A stretch of 64,000 bases of DNA from an uncultured Chloroflexia bacterium (GTDB taxonomy: Bacteria; Chloroflexota; Limnocylindria; Limnocylindrales; CSP1-4). This document shows positions 3,974-27,128 of the stretch, in pieces; the stretch's first letter is position 1, and every line of letters begins with the position of its first letter. The notes under the pieces are model-generated. The model did no database searches and had not been told where the DNA came from. It saw nothing but the letters and a program-made list of their open reading frames with translations. The stretch is taken from NCBI GenBank assembly GCA_963749735.1, contig CAVVNZ010000003.1, forward strand, positions 96,300-160,299, written 5' to 3'. Position numbers and translations under genes: made by a program.

Positions 3974-4927
3974 ATGACATCGGCGATCAGCACGACCGGT
4001 CTGACCAAGCACTACCCGGGAGTCCAGGCCCTGACGGACCTCGACCTCGAGGTGCCGACCGGCTCGATCTACGGCTTCCTCGGACCCAACGGGGCCGGGA
4101 AGACCACGGCCCTCAAGATCCTGGCCGGCCTCGCCCAGCCGACCAGCGGCACGGCGACCGTCGCCGGTGTCCCGCTCGAGGCCGGTGAGGCCTACAAGCG
4201 AGCGATCGGCTTCCTCGGGCAGGAGCCGCGCTTCTACGACTGGATGTCGGGTCGCGAGACGCTCCGCTACGCGGCGTCGTTCTACCCGTGGGTCCAGGAT
4301 CCGATCGACGCCCGCGTCGACGGCCTCCTCGAGCTCGTCGGGCTGACCGACGCGGCCGAGCGACGGACGCGGACCTACTCCGGCGGGATGCGCCAGCGGC
4401 TCGGGATCGCCCAGGCCCTGGTCGGCCGGCCGTCGGTCCTCCTCCTCGACGAGCCCGTCAGCGCGCTCGACCCGATCGGCCGCAAGGCCGCCTTCGACCT
4501 GCTCGAGCAGCTCAGGCACGAGACCACGATCTTCTACTCCACCCACATCCTCGAGGACGTCGAGCGCGTGAGCGACTACGTGGCGATCCTCGACCACGGC
4601 CGGCTCGTCCGCGCCGCGCCGACCGCCGAGCTCCTCGGCAGCTTCACCCGCGACCAGCTCCGGGTCACCTTCGTCGGGTCCGGGGCGGACGTCGCCGCCG
4701 GTCTCGCAAGCGTCGCCGGGGTCACCTCGGTCGAAGCCGGGACCGCGGACGGCGAGAGCCGGTCCTACGTCCTCACCGTCGCGCCGGACGCGATCGGCGC
4801 CATCCAGCGAGCCGTGCAGGGCTTCGCCGCCACGAACGACCTGCTGGTCACCGAGAACAGCCCCGTCCACCTGGACCTGGAGGATGTCTTCCTCCGCCTG
4901 ATCGACTCGAAGGAGCATGCGGCATGA
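3974..4927 (+). CDS. ABC transporter ATP-binding protein (ABC-2 exporter type)
   Basis: Intact 317-aa ORF with Walker A GPNGAGKTT, the ABC signature YSGGMRQRLGIAQAL, and Walker B LLLDEP. Its stop overlaps the downstream start as ATGA. Confidence 0.92.
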   Translation: MTSAISTTGLTKHYPGVQALTDLDLEVPTGSIYGFLGPNGAGKTTALKILAGLAQPTSGTATVAGVPLEAGEAYKRAIGFLGQEPRFYDWMSGRETLRYAASFYPWVQDPIDARVDGLLELVGLTDAAERRTRTYSGGMRQRLGIAQALVGRPSVLLLDEPVSALDPIGRKAAFDLLEQLRHETTIFYSTHILEDVERVSDYVAILDHGRLVRAAPTAELLGSFTRDQLRVTFVGSGADVAAGLASVAGVTSVEAGTADGESRSYVLTVAPDAIGAIQRAVQGFAATNDLLVTENSPVHLDLEDVFLRLIDSKEHAA

Positions 4928-5751
4928 ACGCCACCCCGATCGTCGCGGAGCGCGTGACGAACCTCTCCCCGGACGCCGGGTCCGCGACCCTGCTGGGCCT
5001 CGACCCCCTCGTCCGCAAGGACTTCCGCGAGTGGGCCCGCGGCAAGCGAGCCTGGGTCACCACCCTCGTCGTCGCCCCGATCCTGGCCCTGACCGCCGCC
5101 AACGGCGCGATCAACCACTGGATCATCGCCAACGTCCCGACCGAGAGCGGGCAGCAGATCAAGCCGATCTCGATGGACCCGACCACCAACTTCCTGGCCG
5201 CGATCGGCACGCAGTTCGTGATCATGGCCGCGATCTTCGCGACGATGAGCCTGATGGCCTCCGAGCGCGAGTCCGGAACGCTGGCCTGGACCGCGTCCAA
5301 GCCGGTCTCGCGGCTCAGCATCTGGGTCTCGAAGTGGATCACCGCCAGCGCGACGCTGTTCGTCGCCGCCGTCCTCGTCCCGGTCGCCGTGACGGTCGTC
5401 GTGACCGTGGCCCTCTACGGCCCGCTCGATCCGGCGCTGGTCGTCGCGACGATCGTCGGCGCTCGAGGCCACCATCGTCCTGTTCACCGCCATCGGGCTG
5501 GCCGTGGGTGCCTACGCCCGGAGCCAGGCCGTGGTGGTGTCGGTCGGGCTGGGCGTCCTGTTCATCCCGTCGATCCTCGGCGGGCATCTGGGCCCCGCTC
5601 AACGACTTCCTGCCGACGTCGATCTTCCCGTGGGTCCTCCAGCTGGGCGCCGGCCAGGTCGGGTCACCGGTGACGCCGGTGGCGTGGCTGGTCTCGATCG
5701 GCCTCGATCGTCGCCGTCGCGGCGCGGAGGATGCAGCGGATGGAGTTCTAG
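4924..5751 (+). CDS. ABC-2 family transporter permease, frameshifted
   Basis: ATG at 4924 overlaps the ATPase stop. Hydrophobic multi-TM sequence continues through three frames (track ORFs 4288..5673, 5504..6106, 4917..5840). The reconstructed C-terminus is ...SIVAVAARRMQRMEF with stop TAG at 5749-5751. Confidence 0.6.
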
Positions 5752-5817
5752 CTCCCGACGGTCCTGGGCAGACGGCGCACCTTCCGAGGTGCGCCGTCTT
5801 TTCGATTCGTGCGGCTC

Positions 5818-6397
5818 CTACGGCTCGGTACAGGGCGTGAAGTTCTCGCCTCCGAACCCGGTGTCTTTCTCGGACAGCTTGGTGATCTTGGCGTTGCCCG
5901 AACCGTCGTCGACGACCTTCCAGACCATCGTGCCGTACCCCCGGTCCCCGCCTCGGGGGACGTCAGCCCAGTTGACGGCGATCGTCATGTCGCTGTTGAG
6001 CGGCCCGGTGGCGACGTTGTTCCAGTCTCGGCCGAGCTCGCTCGGCAGGCCGGGCTGGCCCGACATGCCGCTCCACCAGATGACCTTGTCGAGCTGGCGG
6101 ATGTAGTAGATGCCGTCGTCATCACCCAGCCAGGCGCCCGTCAGGTCGATCTTCGCCGGATCGAACTTCAACGTCCGCTTGGTGCATGGCGCGGCGATCG
6201 CGACCGATGGGGCGACCGACCGAGCCGCCGACGCACCGACCGAGGCGGCCGGCGCACCGTAGGCCGCCGCCGAGGTAGCAGCCAACGGGGTCGGCGCGTT
6301 CGGGCTGGCGGTCCCCGCGGTCGCCGCGGAACTGCTGCCGCAGGCCGCGAGGATCAGGCAAAGCGCGATGGACGGAACGGAGCTGTCGTCGAGTCAT
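5818..6397 (-). CDS. Lipoprotein of unknown function, 1-nt frame disruption near 6375
   Basis: ATG at 6397 is preceded by a GGAGGAGGGA Shine-Dalgarno. After a frameshift the signal reads MTRRQLRSV|PSIALCLILAACGSS with an L-A-A-C lipobox. The 155-aa body (track ORF 5818..6285) follows. Confidence 0.6.
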
Positions 6398-6602
6398 GGG
6401 TCAGGTCCCTCCTCCTGGGCTGGGAAGGTACCCCTCGACCGTCTCGTGGCCGTCGCCAGACAAATGGCGAAGTACCACGCACCACGACTCTGGCTGATGA
6501 GCGCGGCCTTTCCCGGCCGATCCCGGCCGCCGGATCGAGGAGGTCGACCTGCAGGATCGGTGGGTGGGGTTTCACCCGATCGATCGCGACCCTCGCTCAG
6601 CA

Positions 6603-6633
6603 AACTCCTCCTTCGAACATCGGAGGAGGAGTT
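6603..6633 (+). promoter_or_regulatory. Perfect 9-bp-stem hairpin (AACTCCTCC / GGAGGAGTT) that sequesters an SD-like GGAGGAGGAG, followed 9 nt later by a GTG-initiated 10-codon ORF (6641-6673)
   Basis: The inverted repeat was read directly from the sequence. It lies in a ~550-bp gene-poor interval (6398-6954). Confidence 0.3.
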
Positions 6634-6954
6634 GTTATCAGTGGGTGGAGGCCGCTGGTCTACTGGTTCATAAGCGATTGGAAGAACCCAGCCGTCATGG
6701 CCCGGGGACCGAGCCAGGATGCTCAGTCCGCCGGGCGGAGCTTCGACGGCGGCCTACGCGCCAGCCAATCCCGGCCGTATTCCAGGATCCCTTCCGTCTC
6801 GAGAGGGAGGATCTCGTCCATTCCACGGTCGAGCGTCGAGTCATCACGACCGGTTGGTCCTCGAAAGGTCGATTGCTGACCGTGGTAACGTCGGTCCGCG
6901 ACCGCGAGTCGCCACGGATCATCTCCGCACGGCGCGCCACGAAGCGCGAACGCG

Positions 6955-7317
6955 ATGCGTACGAACGACGACGATGACGTCGAGATCCCTGAGATCCTCG
7001 ACTTCAGCGGCTTCAAGCAGGCCAACGGGCCGCTCTTCCCTGACGGGTTCGAGATCGTGATCGACGACGCCGTCGGGTATCAGATTCGACTGATCCCATC
7101 GAACAAGGTCGTCGGCCGGTTCACGTCCACCATGGAGGCCTGGCCGGTCGTGCAGTCCGAGTTGGCCCGTGGGATCCCGGCGCGTTGTCTGGTGCTCGAC
7201 GCGCTGTTCGCGGACGGCGACCGATACAAGGTCACGTCTGGTCGGATCCTCGAGATCACGGCCCAGGACGGGCTCGGTCAGCACTCGGCGCGCCGAGCGA
7301 CCAAGGCGGCGAGCTGA
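6955..7317 (+). CDS. Hypothetical small protein (120 aa, acidic N-terminus)
   Basis: ATG is the only start after the in-frame stop at 6886. The sequence has a globular-looking hydrophobic periodicity. The RBS is weak. Confidence 0.4.
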   Translation: MRTNDDDDVEIPEILDFSGFKQANGPLFPDGFEIVIDDAVGYQIRLIPSNKVVGRFTSTMEAWPVVQSELARGIPARCLVLDALFADGDRYKVTSGRILEITAQDGLGQHSARRATKAAS

Positions 7318-7397
7318 CTTCGGCATGTTGGCGGGCGCGACCGCACCCGAGGGCCCGATCGCGCCCCCGTTCGCCGCTTCGACACCCGGTACGTGCC

Positions 7398-9152
7398 TCA
7401 CGACGACATCTTGCCGAGTCGTCGTGACAGCTCAGGTGGCGCGATGACGATGAGCTGGGTGGTGGCGCGGGTCAGGCCGACGTAGAGGAGCTGGTCGAGT
7501 CGCTCGCCGGTCTCGGGCAGCTCGCACAGGATGACGACCTCGCGCTCGAGGCCCTTGAACCGGCGGATCGTCTCGAACCGGACGACGTCGCCGGGCTCGT
7601 CGGGGACCTCGTCGGCCGGCAGGCGCAGGGATCGGCCGGCGTCGTCGATCGCGCCGTTCCAGAGGACCTGGTTGCCGAAGGTCCGAGCGCGCCAGACAGC
7701 GCTGTCGGCCGCGGACCGACCGGAAAGCACCACCATCTCCCACGGCCGGACCCCTTCCTCGACCGTCAGGCGATGGAGCTCGAGGCGTACGGCCTCGACC
7801 GTGGCGTCGCCGGGTGCCGCCACGATCAATCGCGGCGCGTGACCGCCCGGTGCGAGGGCGAGCGGCTTGCCGGGGCCGTGGTAGAAGCGGGCCGCGAGCT
7901 CGCTCACGGGCGCCGGGCAGCGGTAGTCGTGGAACAGCTCGAGCTGCGGAAGGCCGAGCTCGGCGACGCGGTCGTCACGGAACAGCGCCTGGCCGGGATC
8001 GTGGAAGACCCACAGGACGTCGTGCTCGGGGTCCTCGAGGAGGAACTGGAGTGACTCGAGCCACGCCAGCTCGAAGTCCTGGCCCTCGTCGACGACGATC
8101 GCGTGGAACCGCTCATCCGGGAGCGCGTCGATGGCGGCATACAGCGCTGCCGGCAGCGTCTCGTCCCACCACTCCCGCGGCGGTTCGTCCGGCCTGGCCG
8201 CCAGGACGCCGGCCCGTTCGCCGAGCGTCTCGCACAGGCGGTGGAAGGTCGAGACGTGCAGACGCTCGGCCGTTCCGGGGTCGCGGGCGGTCGCCTCTTC
8301 GACCTCGTGCAGGATCGACGTCGCCAGCGCCTGGTTGAAACAGACGAACAGGGTCCGAAAGCCCTCGCGGGCGAACCTGAGCGCCTTCTCGACGGCGACG
8401 ATCGACTTGCCGCTGCCGGCCGGCCCGATGACCTCCGCCCGTCGCACGTTCCGAGCGAAGTCGAGCGTTCGCCGCTGCTCCTGGGAGGCCCCGATCAGGC
8501 GGGCGCGGTCATCCTCGACATCGTGGCGGAGGAGTCGGTGCAGCGTGACGGTGGGTGCGAGGTAGTCGTCGACCAGCCGCATGCCCGCTCGGTCCCAGCG
8601 AGTGGCCGCGGCTGCCGTCACCGACCCAGTACCCGTACGCCCGGTCAGTGGCCGCTCGGGCAGCCTCGGCGGTCGCGATCGCGTCGGCGTCGAGCACGAT
8701 CTCGCGCGGGGCGTCCGGTCCGAGGAGGGCGTGCCCGCGCGGGAGACTCGCCAGGTCGACCGTCGGAAACGCGACGGCATGACCAGCTCGCGGCTCGTCG
8801 TGCGCCGGCCAATCCGGGAGCGCCATGAGCGCACGCTTCAGGTCGTGCTTGGCGTCCTCCGCCTGCTTGAAGGGCGAACGCCGAAGGTCGTAGCGGACCG
8901 ATCGACCATCGACCGCTCGCGTCTCGGCTGCGGCTCGCCGTCCTTGACCTCGACGACGAGCAGCCCGAGCTCCGGGTGGACGATGACCAGGTCCGCCTCA
9001 CCGTCGTGAGCGGGCCCGCCGGGCCGGGACTTCGCGCACCAGCGGGCGTTCGGGTAGATCCGGTAGTCGGGCGGGAGGGCCGCTCGGAGCGCGTCGTGGA
9101 CGTGCCGTTCGGCGGCCTGTCCGCGCGTCCCCTCCCCTGGTCCCACTCGCAC
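7398..9152 (-). CDS. NERD (nuclease-related domain) plus UvrD/SF1-like helicase fusion protein, frameshifted in the 8560-8900 region
   Basis: GTG at 9152 has a GGAGG Shine-Dalgarno. The NERD motif is GEADLVIVHPELGLLVVEVKDG. The helicase carries Walker A VIGPAGSGKS, Walker B IVVDEGQDF, and C-terminal UvrD_C-like FKGLEREVVIL and YVGLTRATTQLIVI. The middle segment (track ORF 8509..8826) is in a second frame. Confidence 0.75.
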
Positions 9153-9235
9153 CCCCTAGGTGCCTCCACCATAGCGCGGCCGCGTTGGGGTTTCTCGGTG
9201 TGAACGCGACCCGGAGATGCGAGAGACCGACGGGG

Positions 9236-9676
9236 TCAGGTCCGCCCGAACGCCGCCTTCACGTGCGGCCGATAGAGATACCAGAGGACGATGGCAGCGA
9301 CGACCGCCGTGCCCGTCGAGCCGATGATGGCGCCGACGATCTGGCTCGTGAGCGTGCCGCCCAGCAGCGACAGGCCGGCGCCCACGACGCCGGCGATGAT
9401 GCACAGGCTCGCCCAGAGCCTCGTGATCAGCCACGCCCAGTTGTGCCCACCCCAAAGCCCGTACGCGGTCGCCAGCCCGAGGACGCCAACGGCCACGAGG
9501 GCCAGCCCGACGACGGTCATGATCCCGTCGAGGGTGTCTCCGAACCCGTGGTCGCTGAGGAAGCCTCCCGCGATCCCGATATCGCCCAGCCCGGCGAGGA
9601 CATCCGCCACGCCGGTGATCGCGGCCACCACCGCCAGGAAGATCACACCAGTCGGTCGATCCGTCCGAGTCGTCAT
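9236..9676 (-). CDS. Hypothetical integral membrane protein (4 predicted TM helices)
   Basis: Intact 146-aa ORF that is strongly hydrophobic and G/A/V/L/I-rich. Confidence 0.6.
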   Translation of the reverse strand: MTTRTDRPTGVIFLAVVAAITGVADVLAGLGDIGIAGGFLSDHGFGDTLDGIMTVVGLALVAVGVLGLATAYGLWGGHNWAWLITRLWASLCIIAGVVGAGLSLLGGTLTSQIVGAIIGSTGTAVVAAIVLWYLYRPHVKAAFGRT

Positions 9677-9831
9677 TTTCGAGCTCCCTTCTGGACCGGT
9701 CGCTCAGGCGCGATGCCGGTGACACCTAGAGCGTAGGACTCGCGTTCCTGCCGCGCAGGGCACGTTCTGCCAAGTCTCAGTACCTTGTCAGGTGACGCAG
9801 CCACAGTCAGCCGTTCCATGGGGCACCCTGC

Positions 9832-11037: not shown

Positions 11038-11786
11038 CTACGGCAGCGTCCAGAGGTCGATGCAGAACATGCAGCCGGCGCCGCCATTGCTCCGGTTCAC
11101 CCAATCGACGAGCGCGCCGATGTCCTTGTCCTTGCCGACGACGCCGATGTAGATACCCTGCCCGTCCAGCTCACCCGGCATCCGAATGCGAAGGTTGGCG
11201 ACGCCGGCCGCGTCGATGTAGCACCCGATCCGCTGGGCATAGGCGTCGACTCCGGGGATGTCCACGCCTTCTCCGGGCTTCCCGTCCTGGCACGCGTTCC
11301 CGCTGTCGAGCTTGACGCCATTGTCGGCCAGGCGAGCGCGGTAGAGCGGGTTCAGCGACGAGTTCTTCGGGAAGCGATAGAAGCCGACCAGGGAGGCAGG
11401 GCCGGCTGGGGTGCATTCGACGCCGGCGTCGGCGCCGTCGGGCAGCTGCGTCGCCGGGACGCAGGACGGCCGGATCTTCTTGTCGATCCCGGACAGGATG
11501 AAGAGCTGCGCGCCGGTCCAAGCGCTGACCGGCGGCTGGGTCGCCGCGGCGGTCGTCGGGGCCGGCGTCTTCGCGGCGGTGCTCGGCCCAGCGCTGGCGG
11601 CCGCCGACTCGGGCGGTGTCGCCGAGGGCGCGGGCGGGAGCGTCTCGGAGGTGATGACCGGCGATCCGGGACCCGACGCCGTCGAGCTCGTGATCGCGCA
11701 TCCGAGCGAGGAGCCCGACGAGGGTACCGGCGAGGAGCGCGCCACGCGCGACTCGTCTCCGTGGCGTGGCACCGGGAGATTGCATG
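11038..11786 (-). CDS. Putative lipoprotein with a Tat-like signal, frame disruption near 11700
   Basis: ATG at 11786 gives MQSPGATPRRRVARGALLAGTLVGLL. The other frame continues ...LGCAITSS (L-L-G-C lipobox) into a Cys-containing secreted body. Confidence 0.5.
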
Positions 11787-11808
11787 TCCCGAGCATACGC
11801 GCCGCCGA

Positions 11809-13308
11809 TCAGCTCGACGTCGAGTCGAGTGCCTCCGATGTGTCGCGCCAGCGACGCAAGGCGCGGTCGAACACGTCGAGCGCCCCGCCGGAGAAGAGCA
11901 CGAAGTCGATGCGCTCGATGGAGGTCGGAACCGACAGGTGCTCCGCGGCGGTCGCGACCGCGATCGTCGCAGCCGCCTCGATCGGGTAGCCATAGATGCC
12001 GGTGCTGATCGCGGCCGCGGCGACGGTCCGGGCGCCGGCCTCGTTCGCGACCTGGAACGCGGTCCGATACGCCGAGGCGAGGAGCTCCGGCTCCCCGGCC
12101 GCGCCGCCGTGCCAGACCGGGCCGACGGCGTGGACGACCCACCTGGCGGGAAGATCGCCGGCGACCGACAGGACGGCCCCGCCGGTCGGGCAGTGGCGGT
12201 CCCGACCGTAGCGGCGCTCGAGGTCGGCCATGATCGCTCGGCCGCCGGCTCGATGGATCGCGCCGTCGACGCCGCCGCCGCCGACAAGCCCGCTGTTCGC
12301 GGCATTGACCAGCGCGTCGGCGCGGACGCGCGTGATGTCGCCCTGGATCGTGCCGATGACCCGGTCCCCGATCGCGATCTCGCTCACGATCGCATTCTGC
12401 GACCGAAGGATCACAGGCGCAGCGACCGACCGACTACGGTGCCGCGGACCCCCACCGGCGGTCGGGACCGTCTGCCCGGCGATGGCCTGCAGGAGGTGCG
12501 CGGTGTCCGCACCCAGCCCCGCGTCGTATCCAAGCCCGACCGGGCTCCGCCCGAGGATCGTCGCGTACATCACGCACGCGGCGAGGTAGGTGCCGGCCAT
12601 CGTGGGATGGCTGCCGTCGGGTTGCCACAGGTCGATCTGCGGGGCCGTCAGCCGCGCGGTCCGCCAGGCGATGCCGACTGGCGCGACCTGTGCGCCGACG
12701 TCGCTCGCCACCTGATCGTAGCCCTGCTCGAGCGCGGCCTCCATCGTCGCGAAGTCGGGCAGGCCGTCGCCGATCGAGCCGTCGCGATGGGCCCATGTCT
12801 CGAACAGGATCGGCCGCGCGCCGATCGCCCGGATCTTGCCCACGAGCGTCCTCGCCGCCGGCTCCATCCGCTGCATCCGGGCTGCGAGGATCGCCGGGAC
12901 CTGGCTCTGCTCCTGGAGGACCACGACATCCCAGCCCGGCGCGGCCAGCGCGGTCTGTGTCTCCGGGAGGCTGACATGCCCGGCCAGCTCCTCGCCGCCC
13001 GGCGCGACCTTGCCCGTCCCGACGTGCTGCCCGCCGGACGCCGCCAGCTCGGCAAATACATGGGGCAGGTCGTTGACGTCCGTGTAGCTATTGCCGATGA
13101 ACAGCACGCGCTCGCACGACGCGCCCTCGAGCGGCCCACAGCCGCCCGCGACCGACCAGCGCCCGGTCAAGATCAACGCGCCCAGGATCGCGATGACGAC
13201 GAACGCCACCGCCCCGAGCAACGCGAACGGCACGCCAGCGCGCCGGGGTCGCGCGATCGCCATCTCGGTCATGGCGGGAGCGTGGTCGTCCCGCACGCGC
13301 GTCGCCAT
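11809..13308 (-). CDS. Membrane-anchored SGNH/GDSL-type hydrolase fused to a macro (ADP-ribose-binding/O-acetyl-ADP-ribose deacetylase-like) domain
   Basis: Intact 499-aa ORF. An N-terminal TM (VPFALLGAVAFVVIAILGALIL) is followed by VLFIGNSYTD...VVVLQEQSQ. The macro domain reads GDITRVRADALVNAANSGLVGGGGVDGAIHRAGG...ISTGIYGYP. There is no stop or start between the domains. Confidence 0.75.
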   Translation of the reverse strand: MATRVRDDHAPAMTEMAIARPRRAGVPFALLGAVAFVVIAILGALILTGRWSVAGGCGPLEGASCERVLFIGNSYTDVNDLPHVFAELAASGGQHVGTGKVAPGGEELAGHVSLPETQTALAAPGWDVVVLQEQSQVPAILAARMQRMEPAARTLVGKIRAIGARPILFETWAHRDGSIGDGLPDFATMEAALEQGYDQVASDVGAQVAPVGIAWRTARLTAPQIDLWQPDGSHPTMAGTYLAACVMYATILGRSPVGLGYDAGLGADTAHLLQAIAGQTVPTAGGGPRHRSRSVAAPVILRSQNAIVSEIAIGDRVIGTIQGDITRVRADALVNAANSGLVGGGGVDGAIHRAGGRAIMADLERRYGRDRHCPTGGAVLSVAGDLPARWVVHAVGPVWHGGAAGEPELLASAYRTAFQVANEAGARTVAAAAISTGIYGYPIEAAATIAVATAAEHLSVPTSIERIDFVLFSGGALDVFDRALRRWRDTSEALDSTSS

Positions 13309-13415
13309 GGCCCGAACGGCCTAGAGCGGGATGCCGGCCGTTCGACAGCCCGACCGAGACGATTGTCGCGCTGACGCGAGGCGCTCATACTCGCCGCCCT
13401 AGCGGGGGCAGGGAC

Positions 13416-16426: not shown

Positions 16427-17703
16427 TCAGCGCGTCGGCTGGTCCTCGTGGCGGACGGCCCGGCCCTCGACGCTACGCATCCGGGCCACGTTCGAGCTCC
16501 GGAAGTACATCTCCTTGCGGGACATCTCGGCCATCGGCGCGGCGAGGACCTCGCTCTCGCGGTCGAGCTCGGCGACGATCGCCCGCAGCTCTGAGTCGCG
16601 GCCGGCGTAGTCGCGGATCCGTCGGGCGACCGCGGCGATCACCTCTCGGGCCCCGCGGAAATCACCGGCCCGGTTCCGGGCGGTGGCCTCCTGGCGAGCC
16701 CGCGAGGCGAAGATCCGGGCGACGGCCCGATCGACCTCGCGGTCCCGATGGCTGCTCGTCGTTCTGCGTGGTTGTCGGCGTATTCCCAGCCGAGCTTGGC
16801 CATCGCGCGACCGAGCACGCCCTCCCGGTCCGACACGCCGAGGATCGTCCCCGACGTGTGGCCGATCTCGCCGAACGGGAAGTTGAGCCGCAGGACGACC
16901 TGGAGCCGCTGGTCAGCGACGAGGTCCCCGACGCTGATCGTGGTCCGGCTCCCGCGCGTCTCCGCCGGGAACGGGCTGAGCGGATCGACGATGACGCCGT
17001 CGGCCGCGGTCAGCTCGATGGTCACGTCTCGGGCGACGATCTCGAGGGTCTCCCCCACCTCGCTCGTCACGTGGTCGCGGATTCCGGCCGCGTCCCGGAT
17101 GAAGTAGAAGTGGCCGCCGCCGGCGTCGGCCATCGCCTGGAGCAGCGCCTCGTCGAAGTCCTGGCCGACCCCGAACGTCGTCGTGGTCACGCCGCGGATC
17201 CGGAGCTCGCCGGCGTGCCGCGCCAGCTCTTCCGGGTCGGTCATGCCGACGTTGGCGAGCCCGTCGGTCAGCAGCAGGCAGCGATTGACGCCGTCGGCCG
17301 ACAGTGCGAGGGCGACCTGCTCGCACCCGCGCAGCCAGCCCTCGCCGAGGTTCGTGCTGCCACGCGCCTCGATCTCGCGGAGCCGCGCCAGGGCGGAGCG
17401 GCGGGCGTCGTCCGTGGCGGGCGCCGACGGGAAGACCACGTCGATCTGCTCGTCGTAGACGACGATGCTGAACTGGTCCGTCGGGTGGAGCCGCGCCAGC
17501 GACTCCTCGACGGCGAGCTTGGCGAGCCGCAGCTTCTCGCCGCTCATCGACCCGGAACGGTCGATGACGAAGGCGAGGCGGACCGGAGGACGGGCGTACT
17601 CGCGTCGGGCGGGCGGAGCCGTGATCTCTGCGAGGACGAAGCGATCGCTTCGGTAGGTCGGTCGGATGTAGTGGCGGTCTGGGCGAGCGGTGAAGGTCAT
17701 GAC
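16427..17703 (-). CDS. von Willebrand factor type A (vWA) domain protein, frame disruption near 16660
   Basis: ATG at 17703 (MTFTARPDRHY). The MIDAS motif is VIDRSGSMSG, with TNLGEG and LLLTDGLANVG downstream. The C-terminal ~70 aa continue in track ORF 16427..16642. Confidence 0.7.
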
Positions 17704-25897: not shown

Positions 25898-27098
25898 TCA
25901 GCGGAGGCGGCGGATCGGGCCGGCCACGGCGACCAGCAGGCTCATCATCACGAGCAGCGCTCCGGCCACGGCCTGCGCCGCCGGCGCGCCGAAGGCCGCC
26001 GCGGCCGCGCCGAGACCGATGAACCCGATCGGCCCGAAGCCGACCCCGAAGACCCAGACACCCATCGACGCTCCGCGCTCATGGTCATCGGTCGCGTGCT
26101 GCAGCAGCGTCTGAGCGAGCGTGTCCACGCCGGCCGCCACCGCGCCGATGACGAACATGAACACGAGCGACACCGGGAACAGCCCGCTCAGGGCGAACCC
26201 GATCAGCAGCAGGCCGAACGCGGCGCCCAGGGCCAGGAGGAGTCGCCCGGACCGGGTGGCGACCCCGACCCGTGTCAGCCGGATGAGCCCGATCACAGCC
26301 CCGATCGATCGCCCGGCGACGAGGACGCCCAGCCCCGCCGCGCCGACGCCGAGCACGTCACGGGCGAAGGTCGGCGTGAGGGTCATGCTCGAGAATCCGA
26401 GCACCTCGGTCACGATGACCATGGCCAGGATCCAGCGGACTTCGCGGTTCCGTCCGAGCAGCGTCAGGGCGGTCCGCGCGCTCGGCGTGAGGCGGTCGAC
26501 GACGAGGCTCCCGGTCGTGCGGGTCCGCACCGAGGACGATCGCGGCGACGAGCCAGCAGGCGGTCGCGACGCCGAACCCGGATCCGAGCCCGCCGGCGGC
26601 GATCAGGATGCCGCCGAGGATCGCCCCGGCCGAGCCGAACAACTGGACCCCGAGGTTGGACATCGCGAGGCCGTTGGTCGCCCGGTCCTTGCCGACCAGG
26701 TCGTAGACGTAGGCCTGCGTCGCGGACGTTCGGGCGGTGTCGATCGTCCCGAACACGAAGCTGAAGAACAGGATCGCCGGGACCCCGAGGTACCCGCCGA
26801 ACGCTAGACCGGCGACGATGAGCCCGGTCGCCGCGGCCGCCAGGTTGACGGCGCGGATGAGGCTCCGGCGGTCGACCCGGTCGCTGGCCGCCCCGAGCGG
26901 GATACCGAGCAGGAGCGAGGGCGCCATGCGGACGGTCATCGTCAGCGCGACCCCGAGCGGCGAGGCGGTGAGCTCGAGCGACGTCCACGACAGGGCGATC
27001 TGGCTGATCGAGGCGGCCAGGCCGGCCAGCGACAGGCTGACCCACAACGCCGGGAACCCGGCGATGCCGAAGATGGCCGGGAGCCTGGCCGCGATCAC
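25898..27098 (-). CDS. MFS transporter, frame disruption near 26500
   Basis: The N-terminal half is track ORF 26358..27098 and the C-terminal half is 25898..26530. There are 12 TM-like hydrophobic segments. Confidence 0.7.
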
Positions 27099-27128
27099 CG
27101 CGAAACGATAGCCCGCCGCGGATGTGGA

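Follow-up and report, generated by a model that had tools for sequence, protein, structure and literature searches.

The question raised by this locus is whether a single-chain nuclease-helicase, encoded by a seemingly broken gene of an uncultured Chloroflexia bacterium, belongs to phage and plasmid defence or to the DNA processing of its host. The gene lies in a stretch of 64,000 nt (hereafter the window; positions 96,300 to 160,299 of contig CAVVNZ010000003.1), and the initial annotation had presented it as an Nhi-like defence candidate without DNA-repair partners. It occupies positions 9152..7398 of the minus strand, from a GTG start codon (9150-9152) preceded by a GGAGG motif to a TGA stop codon (7398-7400), and its product comprises 583 aa after the deletion of three surplus bases. 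The corrected protein can be aligned over its full length with 96 homologues, and it shares 82% identity, over 99% of its length, with P0001, an intact metagenomic orthologue of 582 aa.

The product is almost certainly an N-terminal NERD nuclease of the PD-(D/E)xK type fused to a compact SF1 helicase in one polypeptide. Three Pfam domains exceed their curated cut-offs in the frame-corrected protein, which bears out the original claim of a NERD domain and a complete SF1 helicase on one chain: NERD (PF08378; aa 10-111; E 3e-10; 41 bits vs. 22.1), UvrD-helicase (33.7 bits vs. 23), and UvrD_C_2 (38.7 bits vs. 27.4). The NERD domain is recovered also in P0001 (E 2.2e-10), and AAA_19 was matched in the helicase core; the same Pfam search gave no match to PDDEXK_1 in the frame-corrected protein. 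The catalytic site of the nuclease (GEAD...EVK; D54, E68, and K70) is intact in the window, and neither these three residues nor E52 vary across 97 sequences. The NERD domain is joined to the helicase motor by a conserved linker of about 100 aa.

All SF1 motifs (I, Ia, II, III, V, and VI) are present and conserved in the helicase core (GPAGSGKS, VCFNQ, DEGQDF, FHDPGQ, RFKGLE, and YVGLTRA). On the minus strand of the window, they are located at 8403-8426 (motif I or Walker A, GPAGSGKS), 8331-8345 (motif Ia, VCFNQ), 8073-8096 (Walker B, VVDEGQDF), 7983-8012 (motif III, WVFHDPGQAL), 7533-7577 (motif V, FETIRRFKGLEREVV), and 7461-7490 (motif VI, LLYVGLTRAT); the places given earlier for the two Walker motifs and for the nuclease motif GEADLVIVHPELGLLVVEVKDG (8937-9002) were correct. 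In a Foldseek search with an AlphaFold2 model of the intact orthologue P0001 (pLDDT 87.6), the matches included SLFN11/14, UvrD, PcrA, Upf1, and Dna2, and the closest solved folds were SF1 helicases; SLFN11 ranked first in both the fold search and a sequence search of the PDB. The NCBIfam search returned nothing near its cut-off, with a weak NERD-type match to MAD6 as the sole match, and an Rfam scan of the whole window gave no match.

The reading frame of the gene is disrupted, although not in the manner described in the initial annotation, which had placed two compensating breaks between 8560 and 8900. A DNA alignment with the orthologues at loci L002 and L001 reveals three breaks on the minus strand, each an insertion of 1 nt, and the first lies outside that range. 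Break 1 is an extra A at 8929 (CCGC[A]GCCG), whose deletion restores GEPRRDASGRW; break 2 is one surplus base at 8893/8894, either the G or the C of GTCC[GC]TAC; and break 3 is one surplus base at 8589/8590 (GACC[GA]GCG), after which the gene is back in its starting frame. The frame therefore passes from 0 through +1 and +2 back to 0, with a net change in length of exactly +3. None of the three insertions falls in a homopolymer; all shift the frame the same way and lie within 340 nt of one another, a pattern not predicted by random error. Programmed frameshifting was rejected as an explanation, since each of the three sites has a different sequence and is private to the window, and relatives are in frame there.

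The breaks divide the gene into four segments, all on the minus strand. The first (8930..9152; aa 1-74) encodes the N-terminal part of the NERD domain with D54, E68, and K70 in GEADLVIVHPELGLLVVEVKDG, and the short second segment (8895-8928) holds the family-invariant residues W82 and G85. In the third (8591..8892; aa 87-187), the NERD domain is completed (SPFKQAEDAKHDLKRAL) and followed by the conserved linker domain (GHAVAFP..DLASLPRGHALLGPDAP), and the fourth (7398..8588; aa 188-583) encodes the SF1 helicase core. If read from its start codon without correction, the gene ends at a stop codon at 8838-8840 and yields a product of 104 aa.

The three frame breaks are very probably single-base insertion errors of the assembly, and the enzyme is in reality most likely intact, because the shifted segment is under purifying selection and frameshifts occur also elsewhere in the window and in related long-read MAGs. 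Purifying selection persists between the breaks, with a dN/dS of 0.13-0.14 over aa 75-187 in the restored frame, no higher than in the remainder of the gene (0.18-0.31). The corrected protein retains all 83 residues that are invariant in the family; 11 of them lie between the breaks, nine in the third segment and two (W82 and G85) in the second. Broken genes for a VWA protein (break at about 16,800) and an MFS protein (breaks at about 26,400-26,600) are present in the same window, and seven related loci from long-read-type MAGs each carry one or two frameshifts in the NERD-helicase gene, at different sites and accompanied by frameshifts in the flanking genes. Of 84 loci, 76 have an intact copy of the gene.

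A real pseudogene of recent origin would look similar in some respects. The insertions would then be genuine, the products would be limited to a NERD fragment of 104 aa and, possibly, a helicase initiated internally, and the gene would have decayed after the loss of its neighbours, an AddA-like gene and a small zinc-ribbon-like ORF. Such a course would agree with the stop codon downstream of break 1, with the close spacing of insertions that are not homopolymeric, and with the fact that, compared with L002, the same locus has lost the AddA-like gene along with the greater part of the 76-aa ORF. It is nevertheless improbable in view of the complete set of invariant residues, the low dN/dS between the breaks, the exact restoration of the frame, the frameshifts scattered over other genes of the window, and those found throughout related MAG loci at sites that differ each time.

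A genome scan yielded 256 confirmed stretches, and all 80 loci that were kept belong to Chloroflexota MAGs; those with orthologues are labelled as uncultured Chloroflexia or Candidatus Limnocylindrales. The family already bears a name at NCBI (“NERD domain-containing protein/DEAD/DEAH box helicase”), is represented by two candidate models in PADLOC, and matches 2,468 cluster representatives with its profile at E<=1e-30. The designation as an uncharacterised variant was therefore overstated; the NERD-helicase is conserved in one group of Chloroflexota and is a further member of a protein family that has already been catalogued.

Across the clade, NERD-helicases are about 60% identical. Their pairwise identities track those of the neighbouring SIMPL, AddA-like, and YccF-like proteins (Spearman 0.61-0.73), and the mean identities of helicase and neighbour are nearly equal (e.g., 67.5% vs. 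68.0%). No clade member was found on plasmids, in phages, or on viral contigs, which carry only relatives at 24-33% identity (24-31% in the viral contigs and the phage collection). From this we infer that the NERD-helicase gene of the Chloroflexota clade resides stably on the chromosome and diverges at the pace of its neighbours.

The kinship with Nhi, which had been proposed from the layout, holds for the layout itself. Nhi of Staphylococcus epidermidis was reportedly the subject of work by Bari and colleagues in 2022; the features of Nhi used here were taken from the preprint of Millman and colleagues and from a review table. Nhi and Nhi-like proteins consist of an N-terminal nuclease and a DUF2075 helicase (Millman et al. 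2022), and the review table lists NERD (PF08378) for Nhi-like proteins and for Mokosh type I. Like them, the window protein combines an N-terminal PD-(D/E)xK-type nuclease and a C-terminal SF1 helicase in a single polypeptide, and the nearest solved relatives of its helicase are group III Schlafens, which fall into the same Pfam family as DUF2075. Membership in Nhi, by contrast, was not supported by the profile searches. The PADLOC model for Nhi (PDLC02372) gave no match to the window protein at E<=0.01, and it must have been present in the PADLOC set searched because 34 of 80 distant relatives match it weakly. The Pfam family DUF2075/SLFN-g3_helicase (PF09848) likewise had no match at E<=0.01 in the window protein and reached only 12.5 bits against a cut-off of 24 in P0001 (E 0.09). 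A remote kinship to the DUF2075/SLFN-g3_helicase type is possible because SLFN11 came first in the fold and PDB searches. The NERD-helicase differs from Nhi and Nhi-like proteins in exceeding the cut-offs for UvrD-helicase and UvrD_C_2 and staying below that for DUF2075, and in being encoded by a chromosomally stable gene.

Resemblance to the group III Schlafens (SLFN11 and SLFN14), the top matches among solved structures by sequence and by fold, extends to the order of an N-terminal nuclease and a C-terminal SF1 helicase. These proteins are eukaryotic, match at only 14-16% identity and a TM-score of about 0.38, and carry a nuclease domain unrelated to NERD. The combination of an SF1 motor with a PD-(D/E)xK nuclease is shared also with Dna2 and with enzymes of the AddAB/AdnAB/RecBCD type. 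In AddAB, AdnAB, and RecBCD, however, the nuclease is a C-terminal RecB-type PDDEXK_1 domain of proteins with about 1,000 aa or more, whereas the window protein has an N-terminal NERD domain and, with 583 aa, about half that size.

The best PADLOC matches of the window protein are two candidate models with the same architecture of NERD and SF1 helicase, RTasNERD-Hel (E 2e-41) and C3a187 “NERD+UvrD” (E 5e-29). RTasNERD-Hel stands for the NERD-helicase that accompanies UG34 reverse transcriptases (cluster 485 of Mestre et al. 2022). More distant full-length relatives of the window protein match this model at up to 4e-128, whereas the match of the window protein is partial, with the best stretch covering profile positions 15-343 of 519, and no reverse transcriptase was found among the identified neighbours within about 0.6-20 kb in the window. 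Full-length homologues with the same domain order and 27-32% identity occur in DISARM-like cassettes on proteobacterial plasmids, which consist of a UvrD-like protein, an SF2 helicase, an MZB-DUF1998 protein, and a terminal NERD-helicase. No cassette partner was found in the window or in the Chloroflexota loci examined; a DrmA-like SF2 helicase and a DrmB-like MZB/DUF1998 protein are missing from the neighbours in the window and from the neighbour clusters of 82 loci. An equivalence between the UvrD-like partner in the plasmid cassettes and the pairing with an AddA-like protein in Chloroflexota was rejected; the cassette protein has no PDDEXK_1 domain.

These relationships bear on the possibility that the protein is a stand-alone, Nhi-like defence enzyme, whose helicase would recognise and unwind replication intermediates of phages or plasmids and whose NERD nuclease would degrade them, an immune function retained by a chromosomally fixed gene. 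Besides the shared layout, the listing of NERD for Nhi-like proteins and Mokosh type I, and the Schlafen-type fold of the helicase with its link to the DUF2075 family, the two best PADLOC matches are defence candidates. Distant homologues (27-33% identity) not only end DISARM-like cassettes but also lie beside DarT, a type III-B CRISPR locus, and a pair of AAA ATPase and helicase, which may be Gabija-like to judge by its appearance, and several clade members are flanked by toxin-antitoxin, Z1, HsdR, and Fic genes. We consider this reading rather unlikely. The Nhi model and DUF2075 fall short as described, both PADLOC matches are to candidate models, one of them covered in part, and the neighbours examined include neither a reverse transcriptase nor a DrmA/DrmB-like gene. 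Moreover, the gene co-diverges at the same rate as housekeeping-type neighbours and keeps about 60% identity across the clade, it is absent at clade-level similarity from the plasmid, phage, and viral collections, and its surroundings in the window do not resemble a defence island.

The neighbours identified within about 0.6-20 kb in the window encode a TPR protein, an ABC transporter, BrnT, a 120-aa ORF, a 4-TM ORF, a 397-aa ORF, and a Macro/DUF4886 protein, as well as cyclase-like, CSD, glyoxalase, VWA, MerR, and MurJ proteins. Surroundings of this kind (ABC transporter, MurJ, cold-shock protein, glyoxalase, VWA, and MerR) look ordinary and unlike a defence island. Relatives of the 397-aa neighbour were found at four metagenome loci, one of which ends at the gene; the other three carry relatives with 46-59% identity without an adjacent helicase.

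Both short ORFs next to the helicase gene exist as annotated, on the plus strand at 6955-7317 (120 aa, acidic) and on the minus strand at 9236..9676 (146 aa); the comparison with related loci speaks against their suggested role as accessories. The 120-aa ORF overlaps by 23 nt with the end of a BrnT-like toxin gene (6771..6977, plus strand, transcribed towards the helicase gene; Pfam BrnT_toxin, E 5e-13, profile positions 21-77 of 77), whose N-terminus is missing or frame-shifted in the window, where tblastn covers aa 28-90 of the BrnT of L002. ORF and toxin gene are conserved together in L002 and L039, and the ORF lies beside a partial BrnT match in L072. The 120-aa ORF has no match in Pfam, PADLOC, or NCBIfam and is probably the antitoxin of BrnT rather than an accessory of the helicase; the BrnT gene is outside the helicase unit. 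The 4-TM ORF, which shares its strand with the helicase gene and lies 83 nt upstream of it, has neither a family match in Pfam, PADLOC, or NCBIfam nor a tblastn counterpart in 84 related loci. Around it, about 540-600 nt are private to this genome; window positions 9221-9759 correspond to 14 nt in L062, and positions 9181-9776 are missing from L002.

A further local change affects a small ORF with the pattern CxxC...CxxC, which in relatives has a length of 76 aa and an overlap with the helicase stop codon. In the window, a remnant of about 34 codons is left (7300..7401, minus strand), and only aa 1-34 of the 76-aa ORF of L002 were matched by tblastn. The truncation results from a deletion of about 480 nt, with window positions 7318-7329 standing in place of positions 11818-12310 of L002; the ORF is kept in L001, L045, L062, and L072.

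The absence of a DNA-repair partner, noted in the initial annotation, is correct for this window, where the AddA-like gene is missing as it is in L072 and L082, but does not extend to many relatives. Under a strict criterion, 16 of 59 loci have an AddA-like gene encoding UvrD and PDDEXK_1 downstream on the helicase strand, and UvrD-family proteins of any kind form the commonest neighbour cluster (34 of 82 loci). Such neighbouring proteins in relatives have 1,219-1,323 aa, with a UvrD-type motor ahead of a C-terminal PDDEXK_1 nuclease. The gene order in L021 is NERD-helicase, UvrD+PDDEXK_1, a 590-aa ORF, and UvrD+HRDC; in five loci, a TM0106-type nuclease-helicase comes directly after the NERD-helicase, in L055 with Ku two genes further. 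Many homologues thus come close to the repair-operon setting that had been named at the outset as evidence against a defence role. Toxin-antitoxin pairs (BrnT, PIN/Phd, ParE, and PemK) often surround the loci and restriction- or defence-type genes (Z1, HsdR, Fic, and type I methylase) are sometimes nearby; about half of the loci are without any of the conserved neighbours.

The adjacency might mean that the NERD-helicase has its dedicated partner in the AddA/AdnB-like (or TM0106-type) helicase-nuclease encoded downstream, and that the two form a machine for DNA-end resection or restriction, in which the NERD-helicase would provide the second motor and nuclease, the part played elsewhere by AddB or AdnA. 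The arrangement recurs on the same strand and with short gaps in three sub-branches (47%, 57-67%, and 76-86% identity to the window protein), another sub-branch has a different helicase-nuclease at the same position, and no AddB-like gene lies beside the AddA-like gene in the annotated loci. Yet a YccF-like membrane protein often sits between both genes, about half of the loci have no partner within 6-10 kb, and vertical conservation of gene order accounts equally well for the adjacency, which makes such a partnership highly improbable. It is also distinctly improbable that the NERD-helicase is the missing second subunit or dedicated partner of an AddA/AdnB-like enzyme (of TM0106-type in one sub-branch), that the two form an undescribed two-protein machine for DNA-end processing or restriction, and that the lineage of the window has lost the partner together with the zinc-ribbon-like ORF.

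Judged by its domains, the SF1 motor would be driven by ATP, either translocating on single-stranded DNA or opening up a DNA end or branch, and would pass the strand to the N-terminal NERD nuclease for cutting. Nhi, Dna2, and AddAB are single-chain or heteromeric nuclease-helicases that work by motor-fed cutting, and by analogy, translocase and nuclease are likely coupled also in the NERD-helicase. A role in genome maintenance, as an enzyme that processes DNA ends or intermediates, is tentatively and slightly favoured over that of a mobile, island-borne defence gene, because the gene is a stable chromosomal resident and frequently located just upstream of an AddA/AdnB-like helicase-nuclease; such a role could include the degradation of foreign linear DNA. 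The best explanation overall, in which our confidence is evenly balanced, is an intact nuclease-helicase of Chloroflexota, represented in the window by its local orthologue, with frame breaks that stem from assembly errors and a role in DNA processing.

On present evidence, the locus mainly calls for caution. The unusual appearance of the gene came from frame breaks that are probably errors typical of long-read MAGs, and the impression of an orphan defence gene stems from local deletions and from toxin-antitoxin genes inserted beside a conserved chromosomal gene. If the protein were a nuclease-helicase that functions on its own, the Nhi-type class of compact DNA-degrading enzymes would gain a high-GC branch from Chloroflexota. 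Its repeated adjacency to AddA-like proteins would in that case lead one to ask if DNA-end resection machinery is assembled from different parts in some bacteria.

The gene on the minus strand at 9152..7398 encodes, as the initial annotation had recognized, a NERD nuclease and an SF1 helicase on one chain. In its corrected form, the protein matches three Pfam domains above their curated cut-offs, namely NERD (aa 10-111, E 3e-10), UvrD-helicase, and UvrD_C_2. The nuclease residues D54, E68, and K70 are present and conserved, as are the helicase motifs Walker A (GPAGSGKS), Ia (VCFNQ), Walker B (DEGQDF), III, V, and VI, which include all those quoted initially. A search of 5.8 billion proteins recovered full-length homologues (565-600 aa) in the hundreds. 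The best of them is intact and 82% identical, and the homologue at rank 120 still shares about 60% identity. The AlphaFold2 model of this best homologue is confident (pLDDT 87.6), and among solved structures the helicase halves of SLFN11/SLFN14 come closest in sequence as well as in fold, followed by UvrD/PcrA/Rep, Upf1, Dna2, and RecD2. These results make the NERD-helicase a compact SF1 motor that bears a PD-(D/E)xK nuclease at its N-terminus and also contains a conserved linker domain (approximately 100 residues).

In the window, this single gene is spread over three frames. It starts with a GTG (9150-9152) preceded by GGAGG, and the first frame reads MRVGPGEG...GEADLVIVHPELGLLVVEVKDGEP; the second frame contributes the short segment RDASGRWSIGP (8894-8926) and the third frame the part at 8590-8892 (YDLRRSPFKQAEDAKHDLKRAL...YGYWVGDGSRGHSLGP). 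At 8588 the first frame is taken up again (AGMRLVDDYLAP) and covers the entire helicase to the TGA at 7398-7400. When the DNA is aligned with two orthologous loci, the frame changes trace to three single surplus bases. Removal of one base each at 8929, 8893 or 8894, and 8589 or 8590 yields an uninterrupted ORF of 583 codons, whereas translation of the uncorrected sequence ends at 8838-8840 after 104 residues. The initial observation is real, but the two compensating breaks first placed between 8560 and 8900 are therefore three +1 insertions, the first of which lies just outside that range.

That these insertions reflect a very recent, genuine inactivation of the gene is improbable. Although they lie outside homopolymers and are bunched within 340 nt, four observations argue for assembly errors. 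All 83 family-invariant residues are kept in the corrected protein, including 11 between the breaks. In the restored frame, dN/dS between the breaks (0.13-0.14 against two orthologues) is as low as in the remainder of the gene (0.18-0.31) and as between the orthologues themselves. Frameshifts are also found elsewhere, both in relatives and in the window. The names of the closest relatives in the genome collection suggest that they are MAGs from a long-read soil survey, and seven of their loci (L039, L045, L062, L064, L072, L073, and L082, all from public MAGs) carry a NERD-helicase gene with one or two frameshifts at differing positions, together with several more in flanking genes (AddA-like in four to six pieces, VWA in five). 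Within the window, a VWA gene (16430-17700, minus strand) is split near 16,800, an MFS transporter (25898-27128, minus strand) is spread over two overlapping ORFs, and an ABC-2-type permease (4288-6106, plus strand) occupies three frames as judged by eye, which fits a general indel noise of the assembly. Finally, the gene is intact in L002, a syntenic contig from a different sequencing source. Because frameshifts are frequent in the public assemblies of the closest relatives, protein predictions from those MAGs will be fragmented.

The gene had been proposed as an Nhi-like defence candidate. Nhi and Nhi-like proteins consist of an N-terminal nuclease and DUF2075, without sequence identity between the two (Millman et al.), and a review table gives NERD for Nhi-like and Mokosh type I. 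The NERD-helicase shares their layout of an N-terminal nuclease and a helicase, but membership in Nhi finds no support: the PADLOC Nhi model does not match the window protein at E<=0.01 (it weakly matches 34 of 80 distant relatives), and DUF2075 remains below its cut-off (12.5 bits vs 24). The top PADLOC matches are two candidate models, one for a NERD-helicase that accompanies some UG34 reverse transcriptases (a partial match, 2e-41) and C3a187 ('NERD+UvrD'); unlike in the UG34 system, there is no reverse transcriptase near the window gene.

This architecture occurs widely and has been catalogued before, so that its description as an uncharacterised variant was overstated. Distant full-length homologues (27-33% identity) carry the NCBI name 'NERD domain-containing protein/DEAD/DEAH box helicase', and 12,945 cluster representatives match the family profile at E<=1e-3, of which 2,468 reach E<=1e-30. 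Parts of this wider family are plausibly defensive. On plasmids of Azospirillum and Rhizobium (NZ_CP029836, NZ_MK318970; loci L086, 1-8626, and L087, 15-8560), a homologue closes a DISARM-like cassette of four genes (UvrD-like, SF2 helicase, MZB/DUF1998, NERD-helicase), in which the NERD-helicase takes the place of the nuclease. In one plasmid the cassette adjoins DarT; its neighbours in the other are a toxin-antitoxin pair and a pair formed by an AAA ATPase and a helicase. In Thermomicrobium, a homologue and a type III-B CRISPR module are 5 kb apart.

A genome scan with one genome per species yielded 256 confirmed stretches, the best 80 of which are all from Chloroflexota MAGs (labelled uncultured Chloroflexia, Candidatus Limnocylindrales, and a few Anaerolineae); none of these 80 is identical to the window, whose DNA is 85-93% identical to L062 and L072. 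When neighbours were clustered without prior assumptions in 82 loci, UvrD-family genes proved the most common (34 loci; in most cases downstream and in the orientation of the NERD-helicase), followed by SIMPL (18; upstream and divergent), formylglutamate amidohydrolase (13), and a YccF-like membrane protein (12; immediately downstream). By a strict criterion (start within 6 kb downstream, same strand), an AddA-like gene (UvrD+UvrD_C+PDDEXK_1, 1,200-1,320 aa) is present in 16 of 59 loci. In L021 (11865-20713), the NERD-helicase is followed by an AddA-like UvrD+PDDEXK_1 protein (1,219 aa), a 590-aa ORF, and a UvrD that includes an HRDC domain, an arrangement that we take to resemble actinobacterial adnAB-uvrD2 regions. 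In another sub-branch (L055, L058, L059, L071, and L074), a 1,187-aa TM0106-type nuclease/RNase_H_2/AAA_11-AAA_12 helicase comes directly after the NERD-helicase, and in L055 (11788-17729), Ku is located two genes beyond it. Approximately half of the loci have none of the common neighbours. Dispersed around the gene are also toxin-antitoxin pairs and, occasionally, genes for Z1, HsdR, Fic, or a type I methylase. Pairwise identities of the NERD-helicase correlate with those of its SIMPL, AddA-like, and YccF-like neighbours (Spearman 0.61-0.73), and their mean identities are nearly equal, which indicates that the gene is co-inherited with its neighbourhood and evolves at an equal pace.

The window itself differs from L002 by the complete absence of the AddA-like gene and by the loss of approximately 480 nt at 7318-7329 (L002 11818-12310), and with them most of a 76-aa CxxC...CxxC ORF, which in L001, L002, L045, L062, and L072 overlaps the NERD-helicase stop codon. 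Sequence similar to this ORF occurs at or beside YccF-like genes in distant loci. A further insert (11038-13320, minus strand) encodes a 503-aa DUF4886 protein with a C-terminal Macro domain and a 252-aa ORF. The two adjacent ORFs considered as possible accessory genes do not appear to serve as such. The acidic 120-aa ORF, into which the end of a BrnT toxin gene (6771-6977) extends, recurs beside BrnT in L002 and L039 and beside a partial BrnT match in L072, and probably encodes the antitoxin to this toxin; the region (6564-7317, plus strand) is a lower-GC patch (~0.66), and the N-terminus of BrnT is missing or shifted in the window. The 146-aa 4-TM ORF (9236-9676) is carried by an extra segment of ~540-600 nt (within 9181-9776) seen in this genome alone among the sampled relatives, and has no homologue in 84 related loci and no family match. 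The other neighbours (TPR protein, ABC transporter, cyclase-like protein, cold-shock protein, glyoxalase, VWA, MerR, and MurJ) make up no defence island. A search of the entire window (1-64000) against Rfam gave no family, whether rRNA, tRNA-like element, or riboswitch, at its gathering score.

We slightly, and tentatively, favour a role in the processing of chromosomal DNA ends or intermediates, because the gene diverges together with its neighbours, AddA-like, TM0106-type, and Ku genes recur beside it, and the Chloroflexota clade is missing from the mobile-element collections searched; a dedicated Nhi-like defence function seems somewhat less likely. The two roles are compatible with each other. 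In this Chloroflexota clade, the gene shows stable inheritance and purifying selection. Its product combines an intact-looking NERD active site with a complete SF1 motor on one chain; ATP would drive the motor along one DNA strand and so feed DNA into the nuclease, which is how other nuclease-helicases work.
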